From IMG/VR virus record IMGVR_UViG_3300033121_002118, positions 1 through 64,000 of that record: a DNA stretch of 64,000 nucleotides; one strand, given 5' to 3'. Of this stretch, positions 2,767 to 60,349 are shown piece by piece (within the stretch, counting starts at the first letter, position 1; every line of letters begins with the position of its first letter). Origin of the DNA: a virus (taxonomy: Duplodnaviria; Caudoviricetes). A model generated the notes under the pieces. It did not search any database. It was not told the DNA's origin and worked only from the letters and a program-made list of their open reading frames with translations. The translations under genes and the position numbers were made by a program.

Positions 2767-3687
2767 ATGTCGCAAAAGACCAAGGCTGAGCTGCAGGCAT
2801 TCCTACACGAGGCTGTGCCTGACCTGGTGTACAGGTACCTGATCCGTGTGGGCAGCCTGAGACAGTGCGGCTCGATCTCCGACGCCTTCGGGACCATCGC
2901 ACGTGACGCGGGTTTCGAAGCCTTCGTCTCATCACGCCCGGGTCACTTCTACAACGTGGTCAGGGTGTCGGACGGCGTGTTCGAGGTCGACCTGTCCGCG
3001 GTCCAGTTCGAGTTCGACCGGTGGGCCGAGGACGAGGACGCAGAGATGGAGCGCCTCATGGCCATCATCGCGCACGACCCATTCAGGGCCATCAAGGTGC
3101 GAAGGATCGAAGAGGTACCTGCGTGGGCCCATGAGCCGCCGCCCGAGGAGGGCCAGTGCTATGCACCGGTGGCTGGATTCAAGCGTGGATACACGAAGAG
3201 GCTCATGCGGGGTGAGTACGGCCGGGTGGACGGCTACATGAAGGACCTGCTGCAAGGACGCCCGTACGCCCAGGGCATGCGGCCCATCGAGCTGGAGGTC
3301 AGGAGACCTAGTCACGGCATGCGCAGGATCGAACTGGTCGAACGACGCGTGATGCAGCGGCTCCTCGAGGCAGGACGTCGTGTCCAGGGCCAGTGGCACG
3401 ACGTCGACCATGGTCGAGGCGGCTCGGTCTACAACAGGAACGAGCCACGACGTCGAACATCGTCCCAAGCACCCGCGGCCGCAGGGAGCCGATGGGACTC
3501 ATGGACACCTGAACAACGTGCCGAGATGCTCGAGGTCGAGATGGGCGGCTACGACGCCAAGGCTCGCGGCGGCATCGCCCAGTCGAGCTGGGCCCAGCTA
3601 CCCGACGTCATCGGGTCCGAGAAGATGCAGGGTTTCGCGCGGATCGTGATGACCTGGGCACGCGACCTGGCCTCAAGCCGGATGTGA
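2767..3687 (+). CDS. Hypothetical protein with leader-like N-terminus (ELQAFLHEA) and a second internal leader-like segment
   Basis: TAATTA 2756-2761 then ATG 5 nt later; in frame with ORF 2539..3687. Confidence 0.7.
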   Translation: MSQKTKAELQAFLHEAVPDLVYRYLIRVGSLRQCGSISDAFGTIARDAGFEAFVSSRPGHFYNVVRVSDGVFEVDLSAVQFEFDRWAEDEDAEMERLMAIIAHDPFRAIKVRRIEEVPAWAHEPPPEEGQCYAPVAGFKRGYTKRLMRGEYGRVDGYMKDLLQGRPYAQGMRPIELEVRRPSHGMRRIELVERRVMQRLLEAGRRVQGQWHDVDHGRGGSVYNRNEPRRRTSSQAPAAAGSRWDSWTPEQRAEMLEVEMGGYDAKARGGIAQSSWAQLPDVIGSEKMQGFARIVMTWARDLASSRM

Positions 3688-4203
3688 CGCGACGGGCCGT
3701 CGCAGCGTCACGAACTCAAGCGCGATCCCGGCGGTGGCCGGTGAGGCCTGCACCAGGACCCGGTCGGTCGTGACGAAGTCTGGGTCGAGCTCCAGGAACG
3801 CGTCCGCGCCGGGAAACCGTGCGCACACCCGGGTCAGGTGCACGGTCGTGACGAGGGGCATCAGCTGCCGGTACATCTCGGCGCCGCCGATCAGGCAAGG
3901 CTCTGGATCGTCCCTGTAGGCGACGCCCAGGGCCTCATGGATCGAACCGACGAAGACTGCGCCCTCCACGCCCACGCATGGGTTGCGCGTGATCACGACG
4001 TTCTTGCGACCGGGCAGAGGCCTGAACTTCTCTGGGATCGACTGCCAGGTCTTCCGGCCCATGACCACTGCATGGCCCATCGTGAGCGCCTTGAAGCGAG
4101 CCACGTCGGACTGCAGCCTGGGCCAGGGCAGGCTAGTTCCCGTGCCGATCGCACCGTCCTCTGCGATCGCGACCACCATCGTCAACGGACGCATCTCCTT
4201 CAC
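3673..4203 (-). CDS. folA: Dihydrofolate reductase
   Basis: VVAIAEDGAIG..LPW, D..RFKALTMGHAVVMGRKTWQSIP..RPLPGRKNVVITR, IGGAEMY. Confidence 0.95.
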   Translation of the reverse strand: MKEMRPLTMVVAIAEDGAIGTGTSLPWPRLQSDVARFKALTMGHAVVMGRKTWQSIPEKFRPLPGRKNVVITRNPCVGVEGAVFVGSIHEALGVAYRDDPEPCLIGGAEMYRQLMPLVTTVHLTRVCARFPGADAFLELDPDFVTTDRVLVQASPATAGIALEFVTLRRPVASHPA

Positions 4204-4275
4204 TGGAGACCTCTCACGTGTTTTTTCGGGTTCTTTTGTGCCATGGACGGGACTGTAGCGGGCCGGCGGGCGCGT

Positions 4276-4587
4276 CTATACGTGTCGAGCCCACGCATAC
4301 AGTCGGTCCTGCAGCATGGACTGCACCTCGTCCCCCAGGTCCTCGAGCGCGTTGCGGAGCCGGGCCATGGCCTCGCGGCGCTCCCGGGACGAGTCTGCGG
4401 CCGAGTTGACGTGGGGCAGGACGCGGCGCATCAACGCCTCCACGAAGTCGTCGGTGCACTGCCGCAGGGCGAAGTCGGGCACGCCCCGCAGCAGCTCCTC
4501 ACGCACGATCCCACGGAAGCGCGCCTCGACCTCTGTCGTCGGCCTTCTTTTCACTGGGCGTCGCTGGCTGGCCGCGTGGGTCCGCAT
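4276..4587 (-). CDS. Small leader-family protein (RFRGIVREELLR)
   Basis: 103-aa ORF coupled to upstream gene; leader variant. Confidence 0.7.
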   Translation of the reverse strand: MRTHAASQRRPVKRRPTTEVEARFRGIVREELLRGVPDFALRQCTDDFVEALMRRVLPHVNSAADSSRERREAMARLRNALEDLGDEVQSMLQDRLYAWARHV

Positions 4588-4588
4588 G

Positions 4589-4906
4589 TCAGCCCTTCCA
4601 GAACTCGCCCTCGTCCAAACGACGCTGCACGTCCTGCACCACGGGGGCGATGACCTCCATCAGCTCCTCGGTCAGGGCCATGGCCGCGTCCTCGACCTGC
4701 TGGTCCCAGGCCGAGGCCCCGCCCCGCTCCTCGCCCATGCCGTCGTCGTCCTCGTACGGGTTGGCCTCCTTGAAGGCCTCACCCGCCGCGCCTGCGCAGG
4801 CGCTCACGAGATCCTCCCACTCGGGGGCGACCTCACCCTCGCGCAGCCTGCGCACCTCACCCACGATGATCCTGCGCAGCCCTTCCTTCGTCAGCCTGAC
4901 AGCCAT
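4589..4906 (-). CDS. Small acidic leader-family protein
   Basis: MAVRLTKEGLRRIIVGEVRRLREGE...; AG-rich RBS upstream. Confidence 0.8.
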   Translation of the reverse strand: MAVRLTKEGLRRIIVGEVRRLREGEVAPEWEDLVSACAGAAGEAFKEANPYEDDDGMGEERGGASAWDQQVEDAAMALTEELMEVIAPVVQDVQRRLDEGEFWKG

Positions 4907-4923
4907 TGTCGTCCCTTCCTCAA

Positions 4924-4989
4924 TCAGTCGTACTCGCCGTACTGCAGCTTCTCGACGATGCGCCGCAGCTGTCCCCGTGTGATCCTCAT
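4924..4989 (-). CDS. 21-aa mini-ORF that is almost only the leader (MRITRGQLRRIVEKLQYGEYD); probable deletion remnant
   Basis: Hand translation; ATGA overlap with the upstream stop at 4986. Confidence 0.6.
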   Translation of the reverse strand: MRITRGQLRRIVEKLQYGEYD

Positions 4990-5234
4990 CGCTTGCCTCC
5001 CAAGAACCGTGAGACGTCGGCCACCATGGGCTCGATCCTGGACCGCAGGTTGTCGAGGGAGCCCTGGACCTTGTCCTGCATGCCCTTGCCCGCGTCGGCG
5101 ACGAATGCCTGGCCCAGGGCCGCCATGAAGGCGTCCAGGGCCGCGCGCTTTGGATCGCCCTGGACAGCCTCACGCAGCTCGGACCGCACCAGCCTGCGCA
5201 GCTCGTCGACGCCCATCCTTCGTGACGTTCCCAT
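4986..5234 (-). CDS. Small leader-family protein
   Basis: MGTSRRMGVDELRRLVRSELREAVQ...; TANNTA at 5241-5246, 6 nt before ATG. Confidence 0.75.
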   Translation of the reverse strand: MGTSRRMGVDELRRLVRSELREAVQGDPKRAALDAFMAALGQAFVADAGKGMQDKVQGSLDNLRSRIEPMVADVSRFLGGKR

Positions 5235-5254
5235 CGGTGCTAGGTATGCGCCCG

Positions 5255-13790: not shown

Positions 13791-14084
13791 TCAGCGTCCG
13801 GGACTGCGCCTGTGCTCTCTGCTCACCATGAACGCTGAAAACTCAGCGCTGATGTCTTCGATCTGGCCTTGTAGCTCAAGGGCCTTGTCGATGTCGCCCT
13901 CTTCCATCGACTCATCCTCCGCAAGGAGATTGATGTCTGCGCCTGCCTCGTCCAGGTGGTCGACGATCCGCGCCAGGACGGTATCTGCACCTGCGCTAGC
14001 GTCCTCGGCCTCTTTAAGGCGACGCACCTCCGCTCTCACCAGCCGTCCCAACCCCTCGCGCGTCAATCGCCTCACGTTCGCCAT
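13791..14084 (-). CDS. Small acidic leader-family protein
   Basis: MANVRRLTREGLGRLVRAEVRRLKEAE...; TANNTA 14090-14095. Confidence 0.8.
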   Translation of the reverse strand: MANVRRLTREGLGRLVRAEVRRLKEAEDASAGADTVLARIVDHLDEAGADINLLAEDESMEEGDIDKALELQGQIEDISAEFSAFMVSREHRRSPGR

Positions 14085-14095: not shown

Positions 14096-14632
14096 TCAGC
14101 GCAGGCCCATCGAGGCGAAACGGTCGCACGATCCGGCCACGTTGCCCAGTTGCGCCGCGACCTGCCTGCCCTCGAGGCTCCCCATGCGTTCGGCCTGCGC
14201 CTGACACCGCCTCACTGCGGTCGCGAGCTTGCTCCATGGGCTGGACGAGCCCCCGCCGCCCGGACCTCGGCCGGCCTCGAGGAGGCGCCTGATCTCCTGG
14301 ACCACGATGCCCCGCAGAGGCGTCATTCTCTCGCTCATGTAGCTGCTGGCAAGCTCGAAAGGCTCAGGCATCTTCTGCCAACCATCATCGTCGTCCCAGA
14401 AGTGAGTGACGACGCCTGTGTTCGCAGCACCTGCCATGTACTTCTTACCGTACGGTGTGCGGCCCTCGCCGTACTGGATGTCATCCGGGCTCGAGACCCC
14501 GAGCTCAACAGCAAGGTCCTCAAGCAGCTCGTCCACATCCTCGGGTTCTCGGCCGCCCGTCTCCATGTCGGCCCTAACGTCCTCCTCGGAGACCTCATTC
14601 GCCTTCTTCTGCCTCGTGCGCTTGTTTGCCAT
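14096..14632 (-). CDS. Hypothetical protein with internal leader-like segment (LRGIVVQEIRRLLEAG)
   Basis: 178-aa ORF directly after polA. Confidence 0.7.
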   Translation of the reverse strand: MANKRTRQKKANEVSEEDVRADMETGGREPEDVDELLEDLAVELGVSSPDDIQYGEGRTPYGKKYMAGAANTGVVTHFWDDDDGWQKMPEPFELASSYMSERMTPLRGIVVQEIRRLLEAGRGPGGGGSSSPWSKLATAVRRCQAQAERMGSLEGRQVAAQLGNVAGSCDRFASMGLR

Positions 14633-15959: not shown

Positions 15960-16295
15960 TTAGCCGAACAGCCGCCTGTACGCCTGCTCGACCAGCTTGT
16001 CGACCTGCGCGGCGAGCCAGGCCGCCTCGGCCTCGACGTTGCGGGTCCAGCTCTGGAGTTCGCGCTCCGTCGGGTATTCCACGAAGCTCTCGAGCTCGCG
16101 CACGGTGCTGGCGGTGAAGGCCTGCGTGACCGCCTGAGCGATCGCAGGGTCAGGCGTGGGATCCCAGGCATCGTCTGGCAGCCCCAACCCTGTGTAACCC
16201 GGGGCCGAGACCATGGCCTCGCGGAGGGAACTCGACCTGGCCCGCGCGGCCTCTTCCCTGATGATCCTTCGCAGCTGTCGTCGTGTGATCTGCAT
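15960..16295 (-). CDS. Small leader-family protein
   Basis: MQITRRQLRRIIREEAARARSSSLREAM...; AGGA RBS; TANNTA at 16401-16406. Confidence 0.8.
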   Translation of the reverse strand: MQITRRQLRRIIREEAARARSSSLREAMVSAPGYTGLGLPDDAWDPTPDPAIAQAVTQAFTASTVRELESFVEYPTERELQSWTRNVEAEAAWLAAQVDKLVEQAYRRLFG

Positions 16296-21006: not shown

Positions 21007-21279
21007 TCAGCGCCCCGCGAAGATGTATGACTCGAGAAAGAGCGCAAGCTCACGCTCGAACTGCGCGGTCCAGCGCGGGTCACGCCCAAACTTCCCCCGC
21101 ACGGCGTTGACGATCCTGCGTGCGATCTGGTCAGGTGCGAGTGTCCCGCTGGATGCGATCATCGCGTCGACAGCGTCCATGTCATGGAGCACCACGTCGC
21201 GAAACCGGGCATGCGTGCGGCCTGTCTCAGCCAGCATGCTGAACACGATCCCTCGCAGCTCGCCCAGCCTGATCTTCAT
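21007..21279 (-). CDS. Small leader-family protein
   Basis: MKIRLGELRGIVFSMLAET...; TANNTA 21285-21290. Confidence 0.75.
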   Translation of the reverse strand: MKIRLGELRGIVFSMLAETGRTHARFRDVVLHDMDAVDAMIASSGTLAPDQIARRIVNAVRGKFGRDPRWTAQFERELALFLESYIFAGR

Positions 21280-25087: not shown

Positions 25088-25822
25088 TCAGGACGGGCCG
25101 GTCATCTCCTCGTCGTCCTCGTCGAACGGCAGCGCCTCGTCGCCGTCGTAGTCCTGCCATTCCTCGAGGCCCGGCAGCAGCATCGCCAGGCGTCCGGCCT
25201 GGTCGACGTCGTCGAAAGCGACGACGAAACCGCTGCCCTTGTGCACCATGAACCGCCGCTCGTCGTCGTCGATGTCTCCTGCACCCTTCGACGCGAACCA
25301 GGTCCGGAACGCCTCAGCGTCCTCAGGACGCAGATCCGAAAGGGAGACCGCGTCCTGCCCATTCATCATCTCGTCCACGAGCACGTCGACCGTGAAAGGG
25401 GGACGGTCGAAGCCGTCGTCGTCCTCTTCGTCATCGTCGTCATCATCGCCCATGTACTCCTCGGTGGCATCGAGACCCTCATAGAAGGCGTCCCGGAGCT
25501 CGTCGGAGTCCAGGCCCATCTCGCCTGCGTACTTCATGACAGCGGCGTCGATCAGCTCTTCCTCGGCAGGATCGCCCGACGCGTCTCGCATCGTGCGCAC
25601 GGTCTCGTCGTCGCTGGGCCGAAAGACCTCGTCAGCGATCGTGGGTCCGTCCCAGTCCTCCTCACGCTGGTTCGCGTGCTGCACCTCGTACGCGGTCATG
25701 TGCACGAAATAGTCCCAGTCGTGCTCGGACTTGGGGGCGGAAGCAACCTCGACCAGCCTCGCCGCTTCTTCCTTGACGATCTGCCGCAGCTGTCCCCTGG
25801 TGATCTTCACGGTCTTGGCCAT
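25088..25822 (-). CDS. Highly acidic leader-family protein (244 aa)
   Basis: MAKTVKITRGQLRQIVKEEAARLVEVA...; TANNTA 25828-25833. Confidence 0.85.
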   Translation of the reverse strand: MAKTVKITRGQLRQIVKEEAARLVEVASAPKSEHDWDYFVHMTAYEVQHANQREEDWDGPTIADEVFRPSDDETVRTMRDASGDPAEEELIDAAVMKYAGEMGLDSDELRDAFYEGLDATEEYMGDDDDDDEEDDDGFDRPPFTVDVLVDEMMNGQDAVSLSDLRPEDAEAFRTWFASKGAGDIDDDERRFMVHKGSGFVVAFDDVDQAGRLAMLLPGLEEWQDYDGDEALPFDEDDEEMTGPS

Positions 25823-25953
25823 GGTCCTACCTATCGACCTTTCTCGAGATTGTTCTTACCACGTCCCGCCGGCGCACGACATCACTCGATCAGGGCCGGG
25901 CTGGGGCTGTTGGGGCTGTCGGGGATGGGCGAGGGCTGGCTCGAGCCGTCGTA
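25793..25953. repeat. 161-bp exact direct repeat, copy A
   Basis: Identical to 26864-27024 (offset 1071); contains the tape-measure 3' end, TANNTA motif and leader start. Confidence 0.95.
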
Positions 25954-25972: not shown

Positions 25973-26506
25973 TTAGTCGTCGGCGTGTGGATCCGCGTCG
26001 CCGCTGCCGTTGCATGAAGGACACTCGTGCGTGCCGCCGCAGTTCTCGCACGTCTCGCCTGTGTTGGTGTCTGTGCCGTCTTCACTGCACTCAGAGCAGT
26101 CGCCGCTGCCGGAGCAGTCCTCGCACTCAGCATCGTCCCTCTCGTGATCCTCTGCAGCCAGATCGTCCAGGTCGACGCCCTCCCAGAACTCGGCCTCGCT
26201 CTCCAGCTTGTCGGCTGCGTCCTGTTCCGACATACCCTCGGTGTAGAACTGGTACAGGATGTCGTTCGCGGCCTCTTCTGCGGCCTGGTTCTCGCTCGAG
26301 AGGTTGTTGAAGGCGGGCGTGTCCGAGATGCTGCCGTAACCGGTCTCATCCAGGACCTTGTCGAGCTCGTTCCGCCAGTCGTTGTACGACTTCTGCTCCC
26401 CGGACGCTGCCTTCTTGCCGCCCTTCCTGGGAGCTTCCACGAGCCGACCCACTTCTTCCTTGACGATCTGCCTGAGCTGCCTGCGCGTGATCTTCTTCAC
26501 CGACAT
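25973..26506 (-). CDS. Leader-family protein with C-terminal DnaJ-type CxxCxGxG zinc finger
   Basis: MSVKKITRRQLRQIVKEEVGRLVEAP...CEDCSGSG.CSEC...CENCGG..CPSCNGSG. Confidence 0.85.
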   Translation of the reverse strand: MSVKKITRRQLRQIVKEEVGRLVEAPRKGGKKAASGEQKSYNDWRNELDKVLDETGYGSISDTPAFNNLSSENQAAEEAANDILYQFYTEGMSEQDAADKLESEAEFWEGVDLDDLAAEDHERDDAECEDCSGSGDCSECSEDGTDTNTGETCENCGGTHECPSCNGSGDADPHADD

Positions 26507-26551: not shown

Positions 26552-26893
26552 TCAGCCATTCCACGTCTTCTTTTTGAGACGCGCAGGCGAGATTTTCATC
26601 TGACCACGCTCTTGCGAATTGAAATAGAGCTGACCGTCCAGAACGAATGCAGCCTGGGCCTCAGCACCCTCAGAGGAATCGAACGCCATGGCGTCAAATT
26701 CCGTTCCTTCTTCATCGAAGTACGGCGCTTCAAACTGAAGATTGTTGCGCTCGGCAAACTCCTTGACGGCGTCAATCGCATCAGCCCCAGAGGAGGCGCT
26801 CCAGCCACCGCCAGGGGTTTCCATCAACCTGCCTGCCTCTTCTGCAACGATCCGCCGCAGCTATCCCCTGGTGATCTTCACGGTCTTGGCCAT
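26552..26893 (-). pseudogene. Leader-family gene with in-frame TAG at codon 11
   Basis: MAKTVKITRG*LRRIVAEEAGRLMETP...; the paralogous leader has CAG at this position. Confidence 0.7.
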
Positions 26894-27024
26894 GGTCCTA
26901 CCTATCGACCTTTCTCGAGATTGTTCTTACCACGTCCCGCCGGCGCACGACATCACTCGATCAGGGCCGGGCTGGGGCTGTTGGGGCTGTCGGGGATGGG
27001 CGAGGGCTGGCTCGAGCCGTCGTA
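26864..27024. repeat. 161-bp exact direct repeat, copy B
   Basis: Identical to 25793-25953. Confidence 0.95.
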
Positions 27025-32493: not shown

Positions 32494-32727
32494 TCAAAGT
32501 CCGTGCTTTCGTCGTACGCTGCGCTTGATCTCATACAATGACTTGTTGAGATCGTTGAGACCCTGGTAGACGTCGCTATCGAACGTCTGCGCAGTGTCGA
32601 GCGCGGCGTCCAGGGCAGACTGGACGCCCGACAGAGCGGCGAGCATGTCCTCCTTTGAGGCACCCTCGCGCAGCCTCGCCGCCTCTTCCCTGATGATCCG
32701 TCCCAGCTCGCCCCTCGTGATCTGCAT
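32494..32727 (-). CDS. Small leader-family protein
   Basis: MQITRGELGRIIREEAARLREGA...; TANNTA 32733-32738. Confidence 0.8.
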   Translation of the reverse strand: MQITRGELGRIIREEAARLREGASKEDMLAALSGVQSALDAALDTAQTFDSDVYQGLNDLNKSLYEIKRSVRRKHGL

Positions 32728-34075: not shown

Positions 34076-34342
34076 TCACTCCGCCGTGTCGTCCCCGCCG
34101 CCGAGGTCGAGCACGAACGACCTGAGCTCCTCGTCGATGCGCTCGAGCTCCTCGGCGTAGGGCGCCTCGAGCGCGCCGCGTGAGGCGAGCTGGGATGCCC
34201 GTTCGATCAGCGTGATCGCCTCATTCAGGAGCCGAATGACCAGGCCCTGGTCAGGTGCCTCGGGCATGCTGGCTTCGCTCTCGTGCAGACGCCGCGCCTC
34301 TTCCTTGACGATGCGCCGCAGCTGTCCCCTCGTGATCCTCAT
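34076..34342 (-). CDS. Small leader-family protein
   Basis: MRITRGQLRRIVKEEARRLHESE... (alternative start 34351). Confidence 0.8.
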   Translation of the reverse strand: MRITRGQLRRIVKEEARRLHESEASMPEAPDQGLVIRLLNEAITLIERASQLASRGALEAPYAEELERIDEELRSFVLDLGGGDDTAE

Positions 34343-34353: not shown

Positions 34354-34581
34354 TCACTCGAGCTCCGCCCGGAGCTCGTACAGTTCACCGTCGATCTTTT
34401 CGAGGCGGTTCATGAGCTTGGCGGACACGCCCGCCGCGGAACCCGTCCCGATCGCCTCGGAGCATGCCTCACGCAGGGCGTCGACGGCCGCCAGGAACGC
34501 ATGCCAGTCGCCCTGGGCCTCACGAAGCGCCGCTGCTTCCTCCAGAACCAGCCTCCGCAGGTGCCTCTTCGTGATGATCAA
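34354..34581 (-). CDS. Small leader-family protein
   Basis: TTG start after AGGAGG; MIITKRHLRRLVLEEAAALREAQ... Confidence 0.8.
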   Translation of the reverse strand: MIITKRHLRRLVLEEAAALREAQGDWHAFLAAVDALREACSEAIGTGSAAGVSAKLMNRLEKIDGELYELRAELE

Positions 34582-34590: not shown

Positions 34591-34872
34591 TCATGCCCAC
34601 GCATAGCGCAGGCCGTTCCTGATCCCGTCGTTGATCGAGTCGCGGAGCATGGAGGCCTCCTGGGGCTCGCCCACGACGTAGTCGACGACCAGGTCGACCA
34701 GCTCGTCCACCTTGCGTGCCACGCCCGGATCGACGATCACGTCGGTGACGTCGGAGCTCGCTCCCTGCGAGCCTGGGCCCATCGGACCCGGCCGTTCCGA
34801 CCAGGCCTCGCGGATGTGCCTGCGCACCGCGCGTCGAAGTGCGGCCGTGCCGTGCTTGGGGGAAGTCGTCAT
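34591..34872 (-). CDS. Small leader-family protein
   Basis: ...ALRRAVRRHIREAW; TANNTA 34879-34884. Confidence 0.75.
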   Translation of the reverse strand: MTTSPKHGTAALRRAVRRHIREAWSERPGPMGPGSQGASSDVTDVIVDPGVARKVDELVDLVVDYVVGEPQEASMLRDSINDGIRNGLRYAWA

Positions 34873-36193: not shown

Positions 36194-36664
36194 TCAGTGC
36201 TCGTCGTCCGGTCCCAGGAGGAGCCCGTCCCATTCTTTGGCCAGCTCCCGAAGGGTCTTCATGACGGCCTCGATCTTTTTTCGCAGCGCCGCCACCTCGC
36301 GACCCGAGATGCCCCCGAGCCTGTCCCTGTGCTCCTCGAGCGCGTCGGCGAAGTTTCGCATCTCGTCGCCGCCCTGCGCGGCCTCGAAGCTGCCGACGTC
36401 CTCGAGCGTCCGGGCTCCGCCTTCGCTGGATCTGGACGACCTCGACGAGGTACCGTTGAGACGATCTGCTTCCTTCGACTGCGCCAGGCTGCTGCGCGGT
36501 GTGATCCGAGGCGCGTTTTTCGGGCCATGACGACGACGCCCTGCTCCCTGCCGACGGGCCTCTTCACGTTCCCTGGCCGCCCCGAGGCCGCCCCGAGGCG
36601 CCTCCTGCAGCCTCGCCGCCTCTTCCCTGACAATCCGTCCCAGCTCGCCCCTCGTGATGATCAC
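36194..36664 (-). CDS. Leader-family protein
   Basis: GTG after AGGAGG; MIITRGELGRIVREEAARLQEAP... Confidence 0.8.
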   Translation of the reverse strand: MIITRGELGRIVREEAARLQEAPRGGLGAAREREEARRQGAGRRRHGPKNAPRITPRSSLAQSKEADRLNGTSSRSSRSSEGGARTLEDVGSFEAAQGGDEMRNFADALEEHRDRLGGISGREVAALRKKIEAVMKTLRELAKEWDGLLLGPDDEH

Positions 36665-36705: not shown

Positions 36706-37110
36706 TCATCCGTCGACGATCTCGACATAGTCGATGCTGCCGCTCCAGACGACGCGCTCACCGTGCACCAGGTACAGCTCTGTGCCCTTGCCCGTGTCGT
36801 CGGTCATGCTGTACCTGCGTCCGTCCCCGTCCACGGCCTCGAGACGGGCAGGCATGACGTTTGGACGATAAGGCGACACAGACGTCACGGTCAGACGCAG
36901 CGCGGGCTTGGGACGCTGACCCATGCGCTGCGTCGCAGGACGCACTGCGAAGGCGACGCCGGGCTGCAGCTGCGAAAATGAGCTGGCAGGACGGCCCCGC
37001 CTGCTCGTCCGCATGCGCTCACGGCCCTGGTTGGTCGGGGCACCAGCTTCCTTGATTCTCTTCGCTTCTTCGGCCACGATCACGCGCAGGGCACGCCTGG
37101 AGATCAGCAT
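36706..37110 (-). CDS. Leader-family protein
   Basis: MLISRRALRVIVAEEAKRIKEAG... Confidence 0.75.
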   Translation of the reverse strand: MLISRRALRVIVAEEAKRIKEAGAPTNQGRERMRTSRRGRPASSFSQLQPGVAFAVRPATQRMGQRPKPALRLTVTSVSPYRPNVMPARLEAVDGDGRRYSMTDDTGKGTELYLVHGERVVWSGSIDYVEIVDG

Positions 37111-37850: not shown

Positions 37851-38153
37851 TCAGCGCTGCTTCCGCAGCGCCATCCGTGCCTTCGTGATGGCGTCCACGG
37901 CGACGTTGATGTGCTCGATCAGGCTCGTGTCAGAGCCCAGAGACTCGAGCGCCAACCCGAGCGAGTCTCGCGCATCGCCCAGGTGCTGCATCGTCGTCTG
38001 GGCCTCAGGCGTGAGGGGCGCAGATGGTCCGACCGCGGGTGTGCCGCGCTTTCGACGGCGCCCACCCATTCCAGGAGGCCTCTTTCCTGCCTCCTGCAGG
38101 CGCAGCGCTTCCTCGTGCACGACCCTTCGCAGCTCGCTCAGCCTGATCCTCAT
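37851..38153 (-). CDS. Small leader-family protein
   Basis: MRIRLSELRRVVHEEALRLQEAG...; TANNTA 38160-38165. Confidence 0.8.
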   Translation of the reverse strand: MRIRLSELRRVVHEEALRLQEAGKRPPGMGGRRRKRGTPAVGPSAPLTPEAQTTMQHLGDARDSLGLALESLGSDTSLIEHINVAVDAITKARMALRKQR

Positions 38154-38180
38154 GCCGTCTACCTATGCGTCCGCCGCGCC

Positions 38181-38468
38181 TTACGTCTCGGACTCGATGA
38201 GCTCACGCAGGTCGTCGACGATCGCGTCGAAGATTCCGCGGGCGAACCCGGATCCCGGATCGAGGACCTGGTCATACACGCCGGGAGGCAGGGCGTCGTT
38301 CACGTCGACCAGCTCCAAGACCCGCTGCATCATCCGAAAGAAATGGTCCTGGACGACCCTGTCGTGCATGGCCCTGTCGATCGGAACGGAGAGCGCCGCG
38401 TCGAGCGCCTGCAGACCCTCGATCTCTTCCTTGATGATCTTGACGAGCTCTGAGCGAGGAATGCGCAT
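38181..38468 (-). CDS. Small leader-family protein
   Basis: MRIPRSELVKIIKEEIEG...; TANNTA 38474-38479. Confidence 0.8.
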   Translation of the reverse strand: MRIPRSELVKIIKEEIEGLQALDAALSVPIDRAMHDRVVQDHFFRMMQRVLELVDVNDALPPGVYDQVLDPGSGFARGIFDAIVDDLRELIESET

Positions 38469-41684: not shown

Positions 41685-41963
41685 TCAGTGCGTCTCGTTC
41701 CACGTGTCGATGATGTCGCCGACGACTCGTCCTACTTCGTCGACGGCACCCGTCCTGATCTCGTCAGCGTCTTCGTCGCCGGCGACGCCTTGCTGCACGA
41801 GCTCGTCCACGATCAGCTCAGCGACGCTCTCGATCGCCTCCGTGAGTTCGTGGCTCCACCCGCCAGCCTCCTCGTGCAGGGCGCGCCTGCCATTCTTGAT
41901 GTGCGAGAACTCTTCCTTGACCAGCTCGCGCAGGCCCCGTGCCGTCAACCTCTTTGCAGCCAT
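41685..41963 (-). CDS. Small leader-family protein
   Basis: MAAKRLTARGLRELVKEEF...ALHEEA. Confidence 0.8.
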   Translation of the reverse strand: MAAKRLTARGLRELVKEEFSHIKNGRRALHEEAGGWSHELTEAIESVAELIVDELVQQGVAGDEDADEIRTGAVDEVGRVVGDIIDTWNETH

Positions 41964-41979: not shown

Positions 41980-42186
41980 TCATGCCTCGAACTGGCCCCG
42001 CAGTGCCTCGAGCACCTGCACGGGCGTGATTTGGTGTGCCTTCGCGGCGTCCAGGACGTCGTCCAGGAGGTTGTCGAAGTCCTCGGAGGACTCGAACGAC
42101 CCGCGCCCCGCCGGGTCAGGACCCATGCCCAGGCGGCCCGCTTCTTCCTTGACGATGCGCCGCAGCTGTCCCCTCGTGATGATCAT
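41980..42186 (-). CDS. Small leader-family protein
   Basis: MIITRGQLRRIVKEEAGRL... Confidence 0.8.
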   Translation of the reverse strand: MIITRGQLRRIVKEEAGRLGMGPDPAGRGSFESSEDFDNLLDDVLDAAKAHQITPVQVLEALRGQFEA

Positions 42187-42380
42187 GCTCTGCCCCTCGT
42201 GAGCTCCACCGCGACCCCCATCACTTCATCGATGCCGAACCCCTTGCGACGCAGGGCCTCCAGCGCGTCCAGCAGGTCGCCGAACTCGGGCTCAGACTGT
42301 GGGTTGCCCCTGGGCCCCTCTCCCAGTCGTGAGGCCTCCTCGCGGACGAGGCGCCGGAGCTGTCCCCTCGTGATCCGCAT
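42183..42380 (-). CDS. Small leader-family protein
   Basis: MRITRGQLRRLVREEASRLGEG...; overlaps sheath stop. Confidence 0.8.
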   Translation of the reverse strand: MRITRGQLRRLVREEASRLGEGPRGNPQSEPEFGDLLDALEALRRKGFGIDEVMGVAVELTRGRA

Positions 42381-45300: not shown

Positions 45301-45436
45301 CCGGCACGAAGGCCGGACCCTTCTTGGCGGTGCCCACCACGCCAGCTGGGACGCCCGAGGGCTCCACCTGGACGGGCCCCGAGAGGTCGATCTCCCGAGC
45401 CGAGACCCCTGCGCTCCCAAACTTAGCCTGCGCCAC
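42380..45436 (-). CDS. Tail sheath protein (gp18-like), paralog 1
   Basis: GVSAREID, GTAKKGPAFVP, PWFAPAG.TRG, WGQKTLQ..SALDRINVRRLL, FEPN. Confidence 0.93.
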   Translation of the reverse strand: MAQAKFGSAGVSAREIDLSGPVQVEPSGVPAGVVGTAKKGPAFVPVTVGVVDDFTAKFGPTDGEKFGPLAAHEWLRRATALTYLRVLGVGDGLRRDTDGSFPGRVNEAGFVVGEQQPQGTTGQLTANQFATSGSGASLGRTYFLGCFMSESAGSTVFSSAGLQGVGGVTPVVSSSVPIVRGVLMAPSGVILRLSSSVTASALPGPTLVATEHSAQGSHFGAVVLSQAGTAKQEFVLLLNGHQGTDPLYPSAITASFDMTAPNYFVNALNRDPLLYQRAGHYLYAHWDLHPATAALTGSGLTAAVSGSGGVSASLGGAEHAAFVTTGALARNTGGATVPNYESFEDRFSSAVTPWVTSQRFGGQRVDLFRLHTIDAGAGPSTAVKFSVENIAPSSDPANRYGTFDLIVREWSDRDSDVRPVEQWRQLSLDPSSDRYIAKVIGDLHAFYDFDRTESAQKLVIEGSYPNRSNLIRVEVSSQVDGQSVDPTALPMGFRGVTHLVTSGSAPMTSPPSAQMGASDVLKRAVTPPVPMRTNITAGSGAKVSVNPLLYWGVHFEHVTSLTTPNASTQANESLGSFAAFFPRFATDAVNFAEGDNAGIADTDANGVMDADRFCRNGFTLENLQVVTASTGDADPQEWDAAVYVRSGDVVVSDSAKTRGFRVADLTQANRRFAKFTFFAQGGFDGVNVFDAQEAALTNTAVTNDMDATNRGRNMGPNVRAYAKALEIMQNTVNVDIQLLVLPGIRHPIVTDAAAEAVRERFDALYVMDPEQYDDAGDLVTTDQQLPSVTATVASFVDRALDNSFSAAYFPDVVMPDPTTGTNVVAPPSVAVLGAIALNDALGQPWFAPAGNTRGSLTTALEARVKLSKDNMDALYDASINPIVAFPGTATSGTNPKGGVVVWGQKTLQAAASALDRINVRRLLIEIRRQVRLIAQTIVFEPNREATLARFSDAVKPKLARIQALQGLTRFLVKIDTSTTTQADVENNTIRGKIFVQPTKSVEFVSLDFVVANSLNQVP

Positions 45437-48500: not shown

Positions 48501-48614
48501 CTTGGCGGTGCCCACCACGCCGGCGGGCACCCCGACAGGACCGCCCGCTGCGGGCTGGGAGAGGTCGATCTCCCTCTCGAAGAACCCGGGGCTGCGAAAC
48601 GTCTGCTCGGCCAT
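45588..48614 (-). CDS. Tail sheath protein (gp18-like), paralog 2
   Basis: SPGFFEREID, GTAKKGPAFVP, PWYAPAGFNR, YGQKTLQ..SALDRVNVRRLL. Confidence 0.93.
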   Translation of the reverse strand: MAEQTFRSPGFFEREIDLSQPAAGGPVGVPAGVVGTAKKGPAFVPVTVAKFDGEFDQVFGGLDPARPGPYAVNEFLRHRSALTYLRVLGAGSNSTETDISTTVQKGRVKNAGFHLDGAAAPNDSQGRHVNVVQFLVARHALQAAEAYGMPVFTDNDSYTGGYAHLVRGVIMTTSGSRIMVLNGSESTVGAISAAGPNDEASVEGGKFKLVVSTSMGSRFGVTDGNAGIRVLTASLDPSSSDYFAKVLNTDPERFDAEQHLLYADYAVDDELATAVAVGVLSGSARTSTSSGDTALTMRAAYGAFDTRYTWPGTPWFISQPFGATEHDLFMFEALDDGEHANQLYKISITNVKASQDDARPHGTFTVQVRDWNDTDTNPVVLEQFSNCSLDPNADNFIAKVVGDRHVTFNFDATVVAERRLVAFGRYPSRSKHVRVVVSEPVRRGLVPARALPFGFRGLETLKTNDSLTDSAPSAASARIVGVLGVSSGSALSGSIVPPVPFRFKVTKGTIPSTAAWDGQPGPLELTVPSLCWGVKFERNTDPTNPNVASEKNALLASLTKFAGIRKLDVMVTGSGADLQNNNKFTLARVALSNATVADLTASASDHMREAAYQRRARLDPSDYRITDPVLGKRVTLATVLAQSTPADFNRFSPFMKFTTFMAGGFDGVNILDRAARRMNDEATSFDAGGGAESTYVSPGFTSNMAGAGQANSTVASYVTAVDIMTDPLAVNTNLLAVPGVRESFLTDYAAKRCQEYGLAMYVMDVPAYDEDSTRLYDSSTARPDVDRTSAAFEARVVDNSYAATYFPDVFIDDLTNRRRVKVPASVAAMGALAFSDRVAYPWYAPAGFNRAALDSVKNVTVRLNVADRDRLHDSGRINPIATFPRNGFVIYGQKTLQVNKSALDRVNVRRLLLEVKRIVIGIARSAVFDNNTPALRARFKSDVDLQLAIIQGQAGIEGFKVTMDSTNNTAEDEQANRLNGRVVIVPTRTAEFIAMDFIVTSSGVSFAS

Positions 48615-52010: not shown

Positions 52011-52011
52011 A

Positions 52012-52977
52012 TCATCCTGCTTTCACACGTTCAATGCAGGCTGTGACATCCCTACGAAACTCCGCATCTGTCACGCGCACGAGCCGCAGACCTTGCTGCA
52101 TAAACCACGCTTCCTGCTGCCTGTCCAGATCCCACTTGCCTGCGATGGCCTTGTCCCGCGGCTTTGGGCTACTGCGGATCTGTTCGATGGGTCGATCCAG
52201 GCCATGCCAGTAAACGCCGTCGAACTGCACGTACGCGTCGATGCTCTTCACCCAGAAGTCGATGGGCCAATGCTCGTTTACGAGGACCCAACGTTCCACA
52301 TCATCTGTGCCGAATCGCTCGACCAACGCAGCATGGAACGCGTTCTCAGCCTTCGATTGACGTGCATATGCGCCAGAAGCCTTCCGCGCATCGTGCACTT
52401 TTTGGAACATCGCAGGCAGCTGCAACGCTCGCTTCACACCATACTTCGCCATGCAACCAGCTTCAAGGGCCCGCTGGACATGCTCGAGCTGCATCGGGTG
52501 CTCGACACCCCAGTGCTTCAATATGGTCTGTCGCGCTTTCTCACGCACAGCAGGAGACTGTTGAGCAAAGCGTACACCATGATTCCTGAGCGTCGACTCC
52601 TCAGCGCGCTTTCGCACGGTCGAGTCTTTTGACGGATGATCAACGCCGCGACGCTCGAGATGTCGCTGCCTGATCTTCTCCTTGACCACGGGCGCGGCAT
52701 AGACGTTCTCGACGCCATAACGTTGAATGTTAGTAGCGCCCGTGATCATCGCGACTGCTCCGCCTGCCCGATGCGAGGCCCGCTTGCATTCGTTCGAACA
52801 CGCATGCGTCTTTCGAGATTGGAGCCGCGTGCCACTTCCCCGCGTCTCCCATTCCTTTCCGCATGTGTCGCAGCGCAACAGATGCAGGTCATATTGCACC
52901 GTTCGTTTCATCGAGTCTTCATGGACAACAGCACGGGATGACAGATACATGTGCCCATAGATATGGGCATCATTCAT
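52012..52977 (-). CDS. Putative homing endonuclease, paralog of 32736..33701 (possible start 52950)
   Basis: CDTCG..HACS, [RK]YGV repeats, SKAE, IDFWV..YVQFDGVYWHGLDRP. Confidence 0.8.
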   Translation of the reverse strand: MNDAHIYGHMYLSSRAVVHEDSMKRTVQYDLHLLRCDTCGKEWETRGSGTRLQSRKTHACSNECKRASHRAGGAVAMITGATNIQRYGVENVYAAPVVKEKIRQRHLERRGVDHPSKDSTVRKRAEESTLRNHGVRFAQQSPAVREKARQTILKHWGVEHPMQLEHVQRALEAGCMAKYGVKRALQLPAMFQKVHDARKASGAYARQSKAENAFHAALVERFGTDDVERWVLVNEHWPIDFWVKSIDAYVQFDGVYWHGLDRPIEQIRSSPKPRDKAIAGKWDLDRQQEAWFMQQGLRLVRVTDAEFRRDVTACIERVKAG

Positions 52978-55322: not shown

Positions 55323-55699
55323 GAGCACGTTTCACGCACGGGCAGGCGACTTCACGGCCTGAGGCAAGGTTGCGACGCATCCTGGTCTCCTCCTTCGGGC
55401 ACGACGCCGTGAAGCAGCAGGTGCGGATGGGCCGCTGGACCGTCGACTTCTACGTGGTGCCGTTGGACGTGTACGTGGAGCTGGATGGGGTCTACTGGCA
55501 CGGCCTGGACAGGCCCATGGACGTGATCGAGCGCTGTGGCACCCTCACGGACCGAAAGATCCTCGGTACCTGGCACAAGGACCGGCTGCAGGACGCCTGG
55601 TTCGGCGACAACGGGCTCAGGCTGGTCAGGATCACGGACAAGGAGCTCAGGACCTACGACGACTCGGACGTGCTCGACCGCGTCCGCGCAGGGTCCTGA
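55319..55699 (+). CDS. Stand-alone Vsr/DUF559-like nuclease domain (truncated HEG paralog)
   Basis: SRPE, VDFYV..YVELDGVYWHGLDRP, LRLVRITD; ATGA overlap. Confidence 0.75.
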   Translation: MRARFTHGQATSRPEARLRRILVSSFGHDAVKQQVRMGRWTVDFYVVPLDVYVELDGVYWHGLDRPMDVIERCGTLTDRKILGTWHKDRLQDAWFGDNGLRLVRITDKELRTYDDSDVLDRVRAGS

Positions 55700-57994: not shown

Positions 57995-58024
57995 TGTCTT
58001 TCTCCTGGTGAAGCGCTCGTCGGA

Positions 58025-58327
58025 TCAACCGCCCGCGCGCGACCGGGCACGTCCGATCTTTTCGATCGCGACCTTCAGGCCCTGCAGGCAGGCCGCTAGC
58101 TCCTGGGCGATCTGTCGCGCGGCGACGTTGCTGTCCTGGGCCGCCGTGAGGGCGCGCGCGACGGTCGACGTCTTGGTCGAGGCCTGGCGCAGGTCGTCCT
58201 CGACCTGCGCCAGCACGTCCCTGACGCGCAGGCCACCGCCCTCAGCGTCCTCGTGCATGATCCGACGGGCTTCTGCCCTGATCGTCTCGCGGAGCTGGTG
58301 CTGTGTCAGTCGCCTGGGTCTGGACAT
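58025..58327 (-). CDS. Small leader-family protein
   Basis: MSRPRRLTQHQLRETIRAEARRIMHED... Confidence 0.75.
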   Translation of the reverse strand: MSRPRRLTQHQLRETIRAEARRIMHEDAEGGGLRVRDVLAQVEDDLRQASTKTSTVARALTAAQDSNVAARQIAQELAACLQGLKVAIEKIGRARSRAGG

Positions 58328-58332
58328 GGTGC

Positions 58333-58863
58333 TCACGCCTCGATCTGAAGGGAGCCGCTCGAGGCCTGGACGACGTAGGTGCCGCCGTCGGACCACAGGC
58401 ACACGCTGCCGCCCCGAGGAACAGTGAGCTTGTCGCCCCGAGCGAGCGAGGCGCCGAAGCCGCTCGACACGATCAGGGCGCCGCCTGCCACGGTGGAGCC
58501 GCTGACGGACCCGATGCCCGCGCCGTTGCGCGTGAAGAGGGCCCCTGCCTCGGTCCTGGCGGATCCGGACAGCATGAAGGAGAACGAGTTGTTGCACTCC
58601 TTGAACATGAAGTGCGCGCCCGGAAAGCTGCCTGGTGCGGGCAGCGTGCCCGTCGCGGCGGTGCTGCCGCTGACCCAGTAGAAGCCGGGCGACGTCAGCG
58701 CGAAGGCCGTGCCCACCTGCGACTGGCCCGTCGCCACCGTGCCAGAGGTCTCCATCTTGAAGGGCGCGAAGCCGAAGTTGTTGGAATGGCCCGCGACCTG
58801 GCAGCCGCTCGCGCCGTCGACCTGGTTGACGCCGTTCGATCCGATCCTCGTGCCGATCCCCAT
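58333..58863 (-). CDS. Gly/Ser-rich putative structural (decoration-like) protein
   Basis: TLPAP...PG..F.FK; TANNTA 58903-58908. Confidence 0.65.
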   Translation of the reverse strand: MGIGTRIGSNGVNQVDGASGCQVAGHSNNFGFAPFKMETSGTVATGQSQVGTAFALTSPGFYWVSGSTAATGTLPAPGSFPGAHFMFKECNNSFSFMLSGSARTEAGALFTRNGAGIGSVSGSTVAGGALIVSSGFGASLARGDKLTVPRGGSVCLWSDGGTYVVQASSGSLQIEA

Positions 58864-58996
58864 CTCGTCCTCGCCCCCTTCCGGCCCGTGCCGTTCGACC
58901 GATAACTAGGTCGACGATCGGCGGGCCTCCACAGGATGTACCGACCCACGTCAGGGTTGGCCCATGTCCGAGTTTCTCGGAATTGACTGCGACCTC

Positions 58997-59457
58997 TCAG
59001 CCCCTCTCGATGTGGCCGAGAGCGTTGCGGTCGGCCATTCGCCGGTACGGGTTGGGGACGTCCCTGCCGTACGTGTCGACCTCGTCGTCCGGGAAGTAGT
59101 ACTTGGCCTTGCTGCCGGGCACCACGTGGTCCAGCGACACGGCCACCTCCTCGCCGTAGCCGGTCTGGGTCTCGCGGTCGGCCTGATCGAACTGTCGGAC
59201 GACCCGGACGCCCATCAGGTCCTGGAAACGGTCGCTCATGACGCCGATCCTGTCCCCGGGTTCGAGCGTCGACAGCTCCGCTGTTCCATCGAGACGCAGG
59301 AACGATGACGTCCCAGCGGCCTCGGCGTCGTCCGACAGCGCCTGATGACCTCCCGCACGAACTCGCGGAGGCCGTCGAGCTCGGCATCGCCCACGACCTG
59401 GTATTCCTGGTCTGCGCCCAGGACAGGATCGTCTGCGATGCCGCCCACTACGTTCAT
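58997..59457 (-). pseudogene. Hypothetical gene apparently split by a 1-nt frameshift near 59340
   Basis: Frame 1 MNVVGG...LREFVREVIR continues plausibly in another frame as ALSDDAE...GHIERG. Confidence 0.45.
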
Positions 59458-59479
59458 GCTGGATCAACAACCAGATCAA

Positions 59480-60349
59480 TCATGCGCCTGCCTTCAGTGT
59501 CTTGGTCACGACTGCGGTGTACTCCTGCCTGGTCGTGAGCGTGGGCTTGATGACGCTGATGGCGGTGCCGCTGATGTTGTCGACGAGGTAGATGTTCCCG
59601 TCCGCGTCAGCCATCTTTTTTCTGTCACGAATGAAGTGTGCCTTCTCGCCGACGTCGAGACCCGCGCCCGGACGGGACGGAAAGAACACATACGAAAAGT
59701 CGGGCGGCTGGAACGTCTCGTAGTCCAGCGCATCCTCGCCGACGATTCCGGCGTAACGCCGGGCCCAACGGTACGTATTGGTGCGCTCAAGCTTCGCCTC
59801 GCTCGGCGACCTGGCGTCCCAGATGAGGCTCGAGGCGCTGTCGTCGTATAGCTCATGGCCCGCCGACTCGGCCGCGACGTAGAGCTGACGCTTCGTGAAC
59901 TTTGTCGCAGGCAGGACATCAAGAGCCCTGACGTCCAATGAGGCCTGCGCGCCACGCGCGGCCGAGGCCCGCTGTCTTTCCTGCTTCTTCTCGGCGTCCC
60001 TGATCTCCTCCATGCGTGCCGCTTGGAACCATGGCCCGCTGTCGTCGTGCTGCAGTGGGCCGATGCGCCACGTGGACGCGGCCTCGGGATCTGAGACGAG
60101 GAAATCGTGGATGCGTGCGTGCTCGGCTGGGCTGACGGTCGCGCCGTCGGCGTCGTGCTGGCGACCAGGCCTGACCCTCGACCACGAAGCATACGCGAGC
60201 GCCAGGCGGATCTTCCTGAGCAGCGGGAAGCGCCGTGCGATATTCTCGACAGCATCCATCTGCGCCTTCATCCGCCGCTCGGCCGCAGCGAAGTCATGCT
60301 TGACGGCCTCCTGCACAAGCCGCCTGATTCTGCCCAGCGTGATCCTCAT
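59480..60349 (-). CDS. Leader-family protein (289 aa)
   Basis: MRITLGRIRRLVQEAV...; TANNTA 60355-60360. Confidence 0.75.
   Translation of the reverse strand: MRITLGRIRRLVQEAVKHDFAAAERRMKAQMDAVENIARRFPLLRKIRLALAYASWSRVRPGRQHDADGATVSPAEHARIHDFLVSDPEAASTWRIGPLQHDDSGPWFQAARMEEIRDAEKKQERQRASAARGAQASLDVRALDVLPATKFTKRQLYVAAESAGHELYDDSASSLIWDARSPSEAKLERTNTYRWARRYAGIVGEDALDYETFQPPDFSYVFFPSRPGAGLDVGEKAHFIRDRKKMADADGNIYLVDNISGTAISVIKPTLTTRQEYTAVVTKTLKAGA

Follow-up and report, generated by a model that had tools for sequence, protein, structure and literature searches.

Leader genes in the window

The window, meaning the whole 64,000-nt stretch of DNA analysed here, belongs to a 104.9-kb contig that represents ~28% of the genome of an uncultured, GC-rich (66% GC), giant T4-like phage. 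One N-terminal peptide of 21 residues, ending in a prohead-protease cutting motif, heads about one fifth of the genes (Table 1). A six-frame profile search (E ≤ 0.01) located 24 leader copies in the contig, 19 of them inside the window; nearly all start at profile position 1 or 2 and at the start of an open reading frame (ORF), and every supported copy lies on the minus strand. The first 45 residues of ~115 predicted proteins gave 17 strong (E < 1e-9), 7 moderate (E down to 5e-3) and 5 weak matches to the leader profile, and the remaining parts of these proteins gave no independent match. A strict regular expression for the leader was found at 14 N-termini versus one internal site (odds ratio 187, p about 1e-15, with some start codons picked with the motif in view).

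Table 1 Features of the window; grades follow the N-terminal scan and a slash marks a candidate cutting site
Feature	Coordinates	Strand	Remarks
Leader gene (moderate)	4589..4906	-	RLRE/G
Leader fragment	4924..4989	-	First 12 codons perfect, then diverges; stop after 21 codons
Leader gene (moderate)	4986..5234	-	Profile search
Leader gene (moderate)	13791..14084	-	RLKE/A
Leader gene (moderate)	14096..14338	-	RLLE/A; absent from the original prediction
Leader gene (strong)	15960..16295	-	MQITRRQLRRIIREEA..., LRE/A at residue 26
Leader gene (strong, yet divergent)	21007..21279	-	MKIRLGELRGIV...; TAnnTA box at -11
Leader gene (strong)	25088..25822	-	Cargo of 219 residues, net charge -53; TAnnTA box at -11
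205-nt direct repeat, copy 1	25749..25953	.	94% to copy 2, including a long exact stretch
Leader gene (strong)	25973..26506	-	Acidic cargo with CxxCxGxG-type Cys cluster; in a close relative fused to the next cargo as a single 407-residue protein
Leader gene with in-frame TAG	26552..26893	-	TAG is codon 11 (26861-26863); rest open, 102 further codons
205-nt direct repeat, copy 2	26820..27024	.	Pair flanks two leader-cargo genes downstream of a putative tape-measure gene
Leader gene (strong)	32494..32727	-	RLRE/G
Leader gene (strong)	34076..34342	-	RLHE/S; cargo in a relative preceded by leader plus extra ~50 residues
Leader gene (strong), TTG start	34354..34581	-	ALRE/A
Degenerate leader	34591..34872	-	In a relative, the leader of the orthologue is clear and ends RLRE/A
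Leader gene (strong), GTG start	36194..36664	-	RLQE/A; cargo homologue in a relative without leader
Leader gene (strong)	36706..37110	-	RIKE/A
Leader gene (strong)	37851..38153	-	RLQE/A; cargo homologue in a relative without leader
Leader gene (strong)	38181..38468	-	IIKE/E only
Leader gene (moderate)	41685..41963	-	E 1e-4
Leader gene (strong)	41980..42186	-	Leader ends RLGM, so the distal LxE is absent
Leader gene (strong)	42183..42380	-	RLGE/G
Weak leader	58025..58327	-	E 0.06; cargo homologue in a relative has a different, leader-free N-terminus
Leader gene (strong)	59480..60349	-	MRITLGRIRRLVQE/A; 289 residues; orthologue in a relative 63% identical, tandemly duplicated
Major capsid protein (Pfam Gp23)	61332..63224	-	Predicted maturation site VLRE/S after residue 61 (~63042)
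Scaffold-like gene, 3' part	63270..64000	-	Gene extends to contig 65069

The original prediction had described ~30 leader genes interspersed on both strands. The shared leader is real and its genes are scattered over tail, head and replication regions, but the count was too high (about 19-24 in the window) and the plus strand holds none of the supported copies. All 21 starts proposed as its core set are minus-strand ORF starts reading variants of MxITRGQLRRIVKEEAxRLxE. Among the looser starts, those at 2767, 13100, 20152, 31541, 37130, 51348 and 52010 dropped out (leader profile E > 0.4) and those at 54177 and 4587 were marginal, whereas the one at 34872 was accepted solely because its orthologue in a relative carries a clear leader. 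The profile scan proposed together with these claims also reached beyond the contig, where 2407 protein clusters match; no close leader copy was found in cultured phages.

Leader DNA is near-identical among the copies of this genome, which holds an expanded, recently homogenised leader subfamily of the above consensus, whereas another uncultured T4-like jumbo phage carries the form MKITKRQLRRIIKE on acidic mini-proteins. Four copies are damaged, at 26893 (in-frame TAG), 4989 (stop after 21 codons), 78999 (TAG) and 90851 (TGA), the last two lying outside the window.

Candidate cutting sites and head genes

The claim that the leader ends in a prohead-protease-type site is supported in silico. 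Nearly every copy has the motif [IV]-x-E14. The best 20 copies comprise 17 intact strong leaders and three interrupted by an in-frame stop; 14 of these 20 end at residues 19-21 with [LI]xE, and the next residue is usually G, A, S or T. The leader is a short, charged helix whose hydrophobic positions are i, i+3/4 and i+7; its description as amphipathic was not borne out by the hydrophobic moment, which is not significant. It weakly resembles the N-terminus of the capsid protein itself (hhalign P 0.028).

An S77 prohead protease is predicted at contig positions 66575-68086 (PF03420, E 1.6e-21, 77 bits with a cut-off of 27). Its motifs GELDHP and GISSRGVGS align with the His and Ser motifs GELNHP and GVSSRGLGS of T4 gp21, and by these matches the phage encodes a prohead protease of the T4 gp21 family (Pfam S77). 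LxE sites had also been noted in scaffold and capsid protein. In the capsid protein, L-[KR]-E/[SA] ([LI][KR]E; in fuller form VL[KR]E/S) is invariant in 80 relatives and stands at the position of LTE/A, the site at which T4 gp23 is cut. The scaffold-like protein contains 13 [LI]xE sites versus 6.4 expected (z 2.8) and the protease protein is also enriched (z 3.8); sheath, RNR and helicase DnaB show no such enrichment. The interval between the protease and scaffold genes holds two leader proteins, one of which is kept across the clade.

Conservation, portability and polyproteins

Relatives of 34-66% GC carry MK[LI]T...L[RK]xIIxEE, and orthologous leaders use different codons at 32 of 78 conserved residues (41%); judged by this comparison, the leader motif is selected at the protein level. 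In a close relative with a 91% identical capsid protein, three cargo homologues lack the leader. Cargoes occur both with and without it, and the leader is by this measure portable between cargoes.

Polyproteins from metagenomes contain repeated leaders that stand behind hydrophobic-x-Glu joints, and one such polyprotein, of three modules, lies directly upstream of a gene with an S77-protease-like start. In the best 150 of the 2407 matching clusters there are 98 internal copies; 76 of the 97 tested have a Glu at most 6 residues upstream, and in 50 of these 76 a hydrophobic residue stands two positions ahead of that Glu, versus a background of 28% (p 1e-11). The Glu could partly be a translated remnant of a Shine-Dalgarno site, which leaves the hydrophobic residue unexplained.

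Cargo proteins

As had been stated, the payloads behind the leader are mutually unrelated (BLASTP), with the sole exception of the paralogue pair 51348/52010, two conserved proteins adjoining the neck gene for which a cargo role seems unlikely. The ART-like and GNAT-like domains mentioned in the same context were not found when the ten largest leader proteins were searched with Pfam and PHROGs, and no enzyme or anti-defence domain was found among the leader proteins. With a pI of about 4.1-4.6 and a net charge that falls as low as -53, most cargoes are strongly acidic, which sets them apart from the small basic DNA-associated proteins of the T4 IPI-III class; some are basic or large. Since this acidity is unlike that of the T4 internal proteins, the term effector arsenal was overstated, and delivery as effectors is one possible fate of the cargoes. 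By eye, the cargo at contig 79504-80490 shows hydrophobic, membrane-like segments.

Proposed role of the leader and comparison with T4

In T4, gp21 cleaves after L/I-x-E, and loading needs no more than the first 10 residues of IPIII (PMC9026906). The capsid targeting sequence (CTS) of T4 is, like the leader, a short N-terminal peptide common to otherwise unrelated proteins and ending in hydrophobic-x-Glu, and a gp21-family (S77) protease is encoded by T4 and the present phage alike. Related T4-type phages differ in their payload sets, as is the case here (PMC9026906, PMC3012670). We favour, with moderate confidence, the reading that the leader is a CTS-like tag for loading into the prohead and processing there. 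It would be a portable N-terminal propeptide that brings the protein behind it into the assembling prohead core and would be removed by the protease, which would cut after Glu at one of two places: [IV]-x-E14, or the distal [LI]-x-E21 with the small residue behind it. The cargo would then be ejected as an effector or, as a core filler, be degraded. Core binding, cleavage and cargo fate are the steps we infer, next to the observed motif, N-terminal restriction, selection, portability, protease gene and Glu sites.

The two systems differ in several respects. The leader measures about 14-21 residues versus 10 in the CTS, and stands on about 24 genes in 105 kb versus four proteins in T4; most payloads here are acidic whereas T4 internal proteins are basic; and leader genes are spread over tail, head and replication regions rather than gathered in an ip locus. 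Leader DNA is nearly the same from copy to copy, and the leader system is known from sequence alone. The likeness is one of architecture only (MK start, spaced hydrophobics, I-x-E end), 10 residues being too few for homology statistics. Among the points that count against a loading tag are the premature stops in three leaders, a share of about one fifth of the genes as head cargo, far above that in T4, the acidity of most cargoes, the membrane-like segments of one cargo, a leader length twice that of T4 and the weakness of the resemblance to the capsid N-terminus. Giant phages of the SPN3US/phiKZ group are a different lineage whose proteases cut at a different motif, and we know of no single shared leader described for them. 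Two reports describe a gp21-like prohead protease in that group that processes many head-internal proteins, including propeptide-bearing ejection and inner-body proteins, at a short motif (PMC5694885, PMC7411985).

Alternatively, the leader may be loaded and clipped as proposed while the cargoes belong to the scaffolding core as accessory components. As acidic fillers, or as regulators of size or charge in the manner of T4 gp67 and gp68, they would be broken down or expelled ahead of DNA entry. Most cargoes are indeed small and very acidic, like T4 gp67, gp22 and the N-terminus of gp68, and the search result for enzyme and anti-defence domains points the same way. The T4 core proteins gp67 and gp68 are cut by gp21. 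The two small leader proteins of the head module lie in the portal-protease-scaffold-capsid block. One of them carries the kind of acidic tail that core proteins typically have, and T4 gp67 (...DLIKEEK...FLIE/GEE) resembles the leader by eye, but the head-block leader proteins follow the protease gene here whereas gp67 and gp68 precede it in T4. Some cargoes are, moreover, basic or large. Because the cargoes turn over fast and their homologues in close relatives occur with or without the leader, accessory or arms-race genes fit better than assembly parts, and we consider this alternative unlikely, if still credible.

It is rather improbable that the leader is an uncleaved N-terminal interaction helix, unrelated to the capsid, that binds a common host or phage partner or drives oligomerisation. 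Its short charged helix with regularly spaced hydrophobic residues would suit such a role, and an unrelated cellular membrane protein (P0007) contains a DLRxIIxEE repeat that is similar. This reading leaves unexplained the strict N-terminal restriction, the [LI]xE and small-residue ending that matches the capsid maturation site, and the hydrophobic-x-Glu joints before internal copies.

DNA repeats and upstream signals

At the DNA level, too, the leader stands out: its 12 copies of 65 nt form the window's largest repeat family, and an AGG-GGA codon pair recurs in many copies. A 205-nt direct repeat flanks two cargo genes; its first copy contains the end of the upstream gene, a TAnnTA box and the start of a leader. 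A TAnnTA box stands 9-16 nt before 21 starts (about 0.4 expected), 16 of which are leader genes, and at 11-13 nt ahead of many leader starts. The sheath, neck, protease, scaffold and putative tape-measure genes have it too, at a greater distance from the start, and the replication genes lack it. As a candidate signal for late expression together with head genes, the box may be compared with the T4 late promoter TATAAATA.

These features (repeat family, codon pair, flanking repeat and box) speak for conservation that acts mainly on DNA or RNA. The leader would then serve as a cassette for recombination, or as the region where translation of leaderless late mRNAs starts, and its peptide would be incidental. 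That explanation is very unlikely, as the peptide is kept in relatives of 34-66% GC despite different codons, orthologous leaders show the synonymous changes given above, and an ordinary Shine-Dalgarno site, with no box, precedes many of the leader genes. Recombination is better viewed as a side effect: the within-genome repeats appear better explained by recent copying or gene conversion, and the near-identical leader DNA probably also serves as a recombination substrate that swaps and duplicates cargo genes. A DNA-level mobile regulatory cassette resembling T4 PeSL was rejected on the same grounds of conservation over this GC range with many synonymous changes.

The leader could also be what a modifying enzyme recognises, in the RiPP-like manner proposed for a shared tag of phage RB43 and a radical-SAM maturase. 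This would account for a single N-terminal tag on many unrelated small proteins but is highly improbable, as no radical-SAM gene (PF04055) was matched in the contig (~28% of the genome), in either of two relatives with 91-100% completeness or in one further relative, and the contig showed no other maturase candidate.

Implications

Taken jointly, the observations allow a broader reading that we put forward tentatively. A globally distributed clade of uncultured 200-370-kb T4-like phages may load at least one fifth of its gene products into the capsid by one portable tag, which thousands of protein clusters carry and polyproteins repeat, and release them by the head protease; as a virion-delivered protein arsenal this would far exceed any now known. 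The DNA of the tag would, in this genome, drive cargo swapping, and nonsense codons may be reversible off-switches for single cargoes.

If this is true, the three-protein internal-protein device of T4 is the small end of a general, scalable system, and large phages deliver dozens of fast-evolving proteins along with their DNA. Many small unknown genes of jumbo phages could then be re-read as candidate early-acting cargo, a large pool of possible anti-defence factors would be indicated, and a natural, sequence-defined tag would be at hand with which foreign proteins could be packaged into capsids. At the sequence level, the hydrophobic-x-Glu joints amount to a prediction open to mass spectrometry of a cultured member or of viromes.

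A conserved leader at the start of unrelated genes

All 21 start codons at which the original prediction placed the core leader proved to be minus-strand ORF starts, each opening a variant of MxITRGQLRRIVKEEAxRLxE. With a profile built from twelve copies, 14 whole and two partial matches (16 in all) scored E<0.01, each directly after a start codon. The HMM scan that had been suggested as a check was performed independently, in six frames and with a broader leader profile (A2). At E<=0.01 it returned 24 matches across the contig, of which 19 fall inside the window, and almost every one of the 24 aligns from position 1 or 2 of the profile. When the N-terminal 45 residues of the ~115 predicted proteins were scored with the profile, 17 matches were strong, 7 moderate and 5 weak; the remaining ~25,000 residues, inside the proteins, gave no independent match. 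The motif is concentrated at N-termini as anticipated, with 14 N-termini and one internal site matching a strict regular expression. The payloads, or cargoes (the protein parts after the leader), are indeed unrelated, as BLASTP beyond residue 26 showed no kinship with the sole exception of the paralogues starting at 51348 and 52010. On these results, the core of the observation stands. The leader family is real and statistically solid, and our literature search found no publication describing it.

Other elements of the prediction were revised. The loose starts at 2767, 13100, 20152, 31541, 37130, 51348 and 52010 had no profile support; the proteins at 51348 and 52010 look structural, and in a relative their orthologues occupy a fixed spot next to the neck gene. 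Leader genes had been reported on both strands, but every supported copy lies on one strand, and a leader gene at 14096-14338 was added to the list. As Pfam, PHROGs and the protein atlas gave nothing usable on the largest cargoes, the ART and GNAT payload domains were dropped. The proposed amphipathic character was not recovered either, the Eisenberg hydrophobic moment of the leader at best equaling that of shuffles. At the end of the acidic cargo of 25973-26506 lie four CxxC motifs, which are of the DnaJ zinc-finger (CxxCxGxG) type; Pfam returned nothing significant for this cargo.

Phage, gene content and relatives

The phage is a distant T4-like myovirus, represented by a single viral contig of 104,860 bp (66% GC, ~28% complete according to CheckV), with the window as its first 64 kb. 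Nearly all genes are carried on the minus strand. In IMG/VR, more than 599 contigs carry a capsid gene whose product is 59-78% identical to that of the phage; these relatives have 34-66% GC and sizes up to 310 kb. The best cultured capsid-protein match is Flavobacterium phage immuto (46% identity), other cultured ones being lower, and megablast and tblastn against cultured phages revealed no close genome. A tblastn search with the leader gave no match in cultured phages, the sole match beyond these being one uncultured 484-kb record; gene starts of immuto show faint leader-likeness only.

The prohead protease domain is fused to a helical N-terminal region of 320 residues, which precedes it in the protein. 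Immuto has a stand-alone protease gene of 193 residues, with a 360-residue gene immediately before it.

Features of the contig and window (window positions, unless marked as contig)
Feature	Position	Remarks
Major capsid protein, Gp23 family	61332-63224	
Tail-sheath paralogues, tandem	42380-45436 and 45588-48614	~1010 residues, ~35% identical to each other; both kept in close relative
Tube, baseplate-hub and neck-adaptor genes		in contig
RNR and DnaB-like helicase		in contig
TerL		in contig, outside window
S77 (T4 gp21) prohead protease	contig 66575-68086 (L001:3575-5086)	Pfam; at C-terminus of 503-residue protein
T4-type portal with intein	contig 68088-71567 (L001:5088-8567)	minus strand
Leader proteins between protease and scaffold genes	contig 66075-66530 and 65602-65865	65602-65865 kept clade-wide, ~3 kb upstream of capsid gene
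Leader genes with one in-frame stop in leader	26861-26863; contig 78970-78972 and 90831-90833 (L001 and L002)	TAG; TAG and TGA
TAnnTA boxes, examples	25833-25838, 31508-31513, 32738-32743, 38164-38169, 60360-65	
Endonuclease-like paralogues	55370-55699 (+); contig 77931-78272; loci at 32914-32993 and 52190-52269	80-nt repeat, 85% identical, shared between 32914-32993 and 52190-52269

Head protease and predicted cleavage sites

In T4, gp21 cleaves L/I-x-E sites after the Glu, and ten N-terminal residues of IPIII are enough for loading a protein into the prohead (PMC9026906, PMC3012670). The S77 domain of our phage, belonging to the Pfam family of T4 gp21-type proteases, contains the motifs GELDHP and GISSRGVGS, which align with GELNHP and GVSSRGLGS of T4 gp21. 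A predicted site, QVLRE/SNSLSTGGG (slash, predicted cut), is present in the capsid protein; it lies at a similar distance, roughly 25-30 residues, ahead of a conserved RR-containing segment as LTE/AEIGG does in T4. Among 80 relatives, the capsid proteins almost without exception carry [LI][KR]E with S or A as the next residue. With hhalign, the leader and the capsid-protein N-terminus aligned as they do by eye, with P only 0.028.

Within the 20 best leader copies (17 intact strong leaders and three with an in-frame stop), 14 are closed by [LI]xE at residues 19-21, and G, A, S or T comes next in 12 of these 14. An inner [IV]-x-E14-E15 is found in nearly all copies; E14 is kept in 213/213 occurrences of the wider family, collected with a pattern that also allowed Q, D and N there. 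The leader could be cut at either the E14 site or the distal [LI]xE. The scaffold-like protein has 13 [LI]xE motifs versus 6.4 in shuffles (z 2.8) and the protease protein is also above its shuffles (z 3.8), with no such excess in the sheath, RNR, DnaB, portal or putative tape-measure protein.

The leader is most likely a tag like the capsid targeting sequence (CTS) of T4, by which proteins would be loaded into the prohead and processed there; its form here would be an expanded one that was homogenized recently. Loading and clipping may also be correct with cargoes that serve as core filler instead of effectors, which would suit their charge, as most are very acidic (pI ~4.1-4.6), whereas T4 internal proteins are basic. 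The leader may alternatively act as an uncleaved interaction helix, a reading that leaves the Glu motifs unaccounted for.

Wider family and polyproteins

Of 1.84 billion protein clusters, 2407 have representatives that match profile A2 at E<=0.001. This set includes a few unrelated repeat proteins, for example P0007, a cellular-looking membrane protein of 975 residues in which LTSDDLRSIIxEEI occurs seven times or more; the leader's core motif thus exists outside phages too, as a repeat unit.

The best 150 of the 2407 matches contain 98 internal leader copies, all Met-initial, and the two polyprotein ORFs whose DNA was inspected stay open under the standard code. A Glu is located at most 6 residues upstream of 76 of the 97 internal copies tested. 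It has a hydrophobic residue two positions before it in 50/76 cases (background 28%, p 1e-11), with no enrichment at the immediately preceding residue. This Glu could be a translated Shine-Dalgarno remnant, but such a remnant fails to account for the hydrophobic residue. The contigs of two polyprotein matches are too short for gene context, except that on one of them a three-module polyprotein lies immediately upstream of a gene with an S77-protease-like start. At the same threshold, more distant relatives of 210-310 kb have 13-16 leader copies versus 24 in 105 kb here, an expansion that is tentative because the profile is weighted toward the phage's own genome.

TAnnTA box and timing

A TAnnTA box is positioned 9-16 nt ahead of 21/109 starts, with ~0.4 expected, and 16 of these 21 belong to leader genes. 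The box, which we take to resemble the T4 late promoter TATAAATA, is present in some relatives as well. For the sheath, neck, protease and scaffold genes, TAnnTA is found farther upstream, preceding the Shine-Dalgarno site, and it is absent before replication genes. Since a position at 9-16 nt excludes space for a Shine-Dalgarno site, these mRNAs may be leaderless and late. The pattern would fit late co-expression of leader and head genes.

Peptide conservation and portability

The leader is the largest DNA repeat family within the genome (12 copies of 65 nt, 60-86% identity), and many copies have the codon pair AGG-GGA in common. A 205-nt repeat (25749-25953 vs 26820-27024, 94% identical) flanks two leader-cargo genes. 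The pattern MK[LI]T-x3-L[RK]xIIxEE is found at gene starts in relatives spanning 34 to 66% GC; the columns M, K, L/I and T are strongly kept though not part of the search pattern, and a Met occurs within 14 residues of 66/118 six-frame pattern matches in 1.1 Mb of relatives.

The closest relative, a 294-kb ENA contig of which loci L087 and L089 were compared, has a capsid protein that is 91% identical. Across seven orthologous leader pairs, 32/78 conserved residues have a different codon. Judging from these comparisons, the peptide is what is conserved, despite the DNA repeats within the genome. Among the rival readings under ALTERNATIVES, a purely DNA-level role of the leader is contradicted by these synonymous changes. 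A tag read by a radical-SAM enzyme was rejected, as the enzyme is absent from the contig and three relatives. Recent copying or gene conversion best explains the DNA identity within the genome, and cargo shuffling would follow from it.

The ENA relative is syntenic with the contig and departs from it exactly at leader genes. For 58327, 38153 and 36664 (genes named by start codon), the cargo homologues there are leaderless, whereas the 34342 cargo is preceded by a leader and ~50 extra residues. It has a leader gene between both sheath genes, a spot with none here. In the relative, the 26506 and 26893 cargoes form a single 407-residue fusion with the internal joint GRLIE/AP.

In-frame stops, intein and endonuclease-like genes

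Three leader genes contain one in-frame stop in the leader, and the frames downstream of all three remain open. Each stop is one C-to-T change away from the codon of paralogues (CAG to TAG twice, CGN to TGA once). Neither the rest of the contig nor the 43 leader matches of relatives showed a comparable interruption. Genetic recoding was rejected, as no other coding frame is broken and the stop codons are used in an ordinary way (TGA 86, TAG 12, TAA 6); aragorn detected no tRNA genes in the contig.

An intein that includes an HNH endonuclease domain splits the T4-type portal gene; Intein_splicing, HNH_3 and Portal_T4 (Pfam) all lie in a single ORF of 1159 residues. Small endonuclease-like paralogues, dispersed in the structural region, are probably homing endonucleases.
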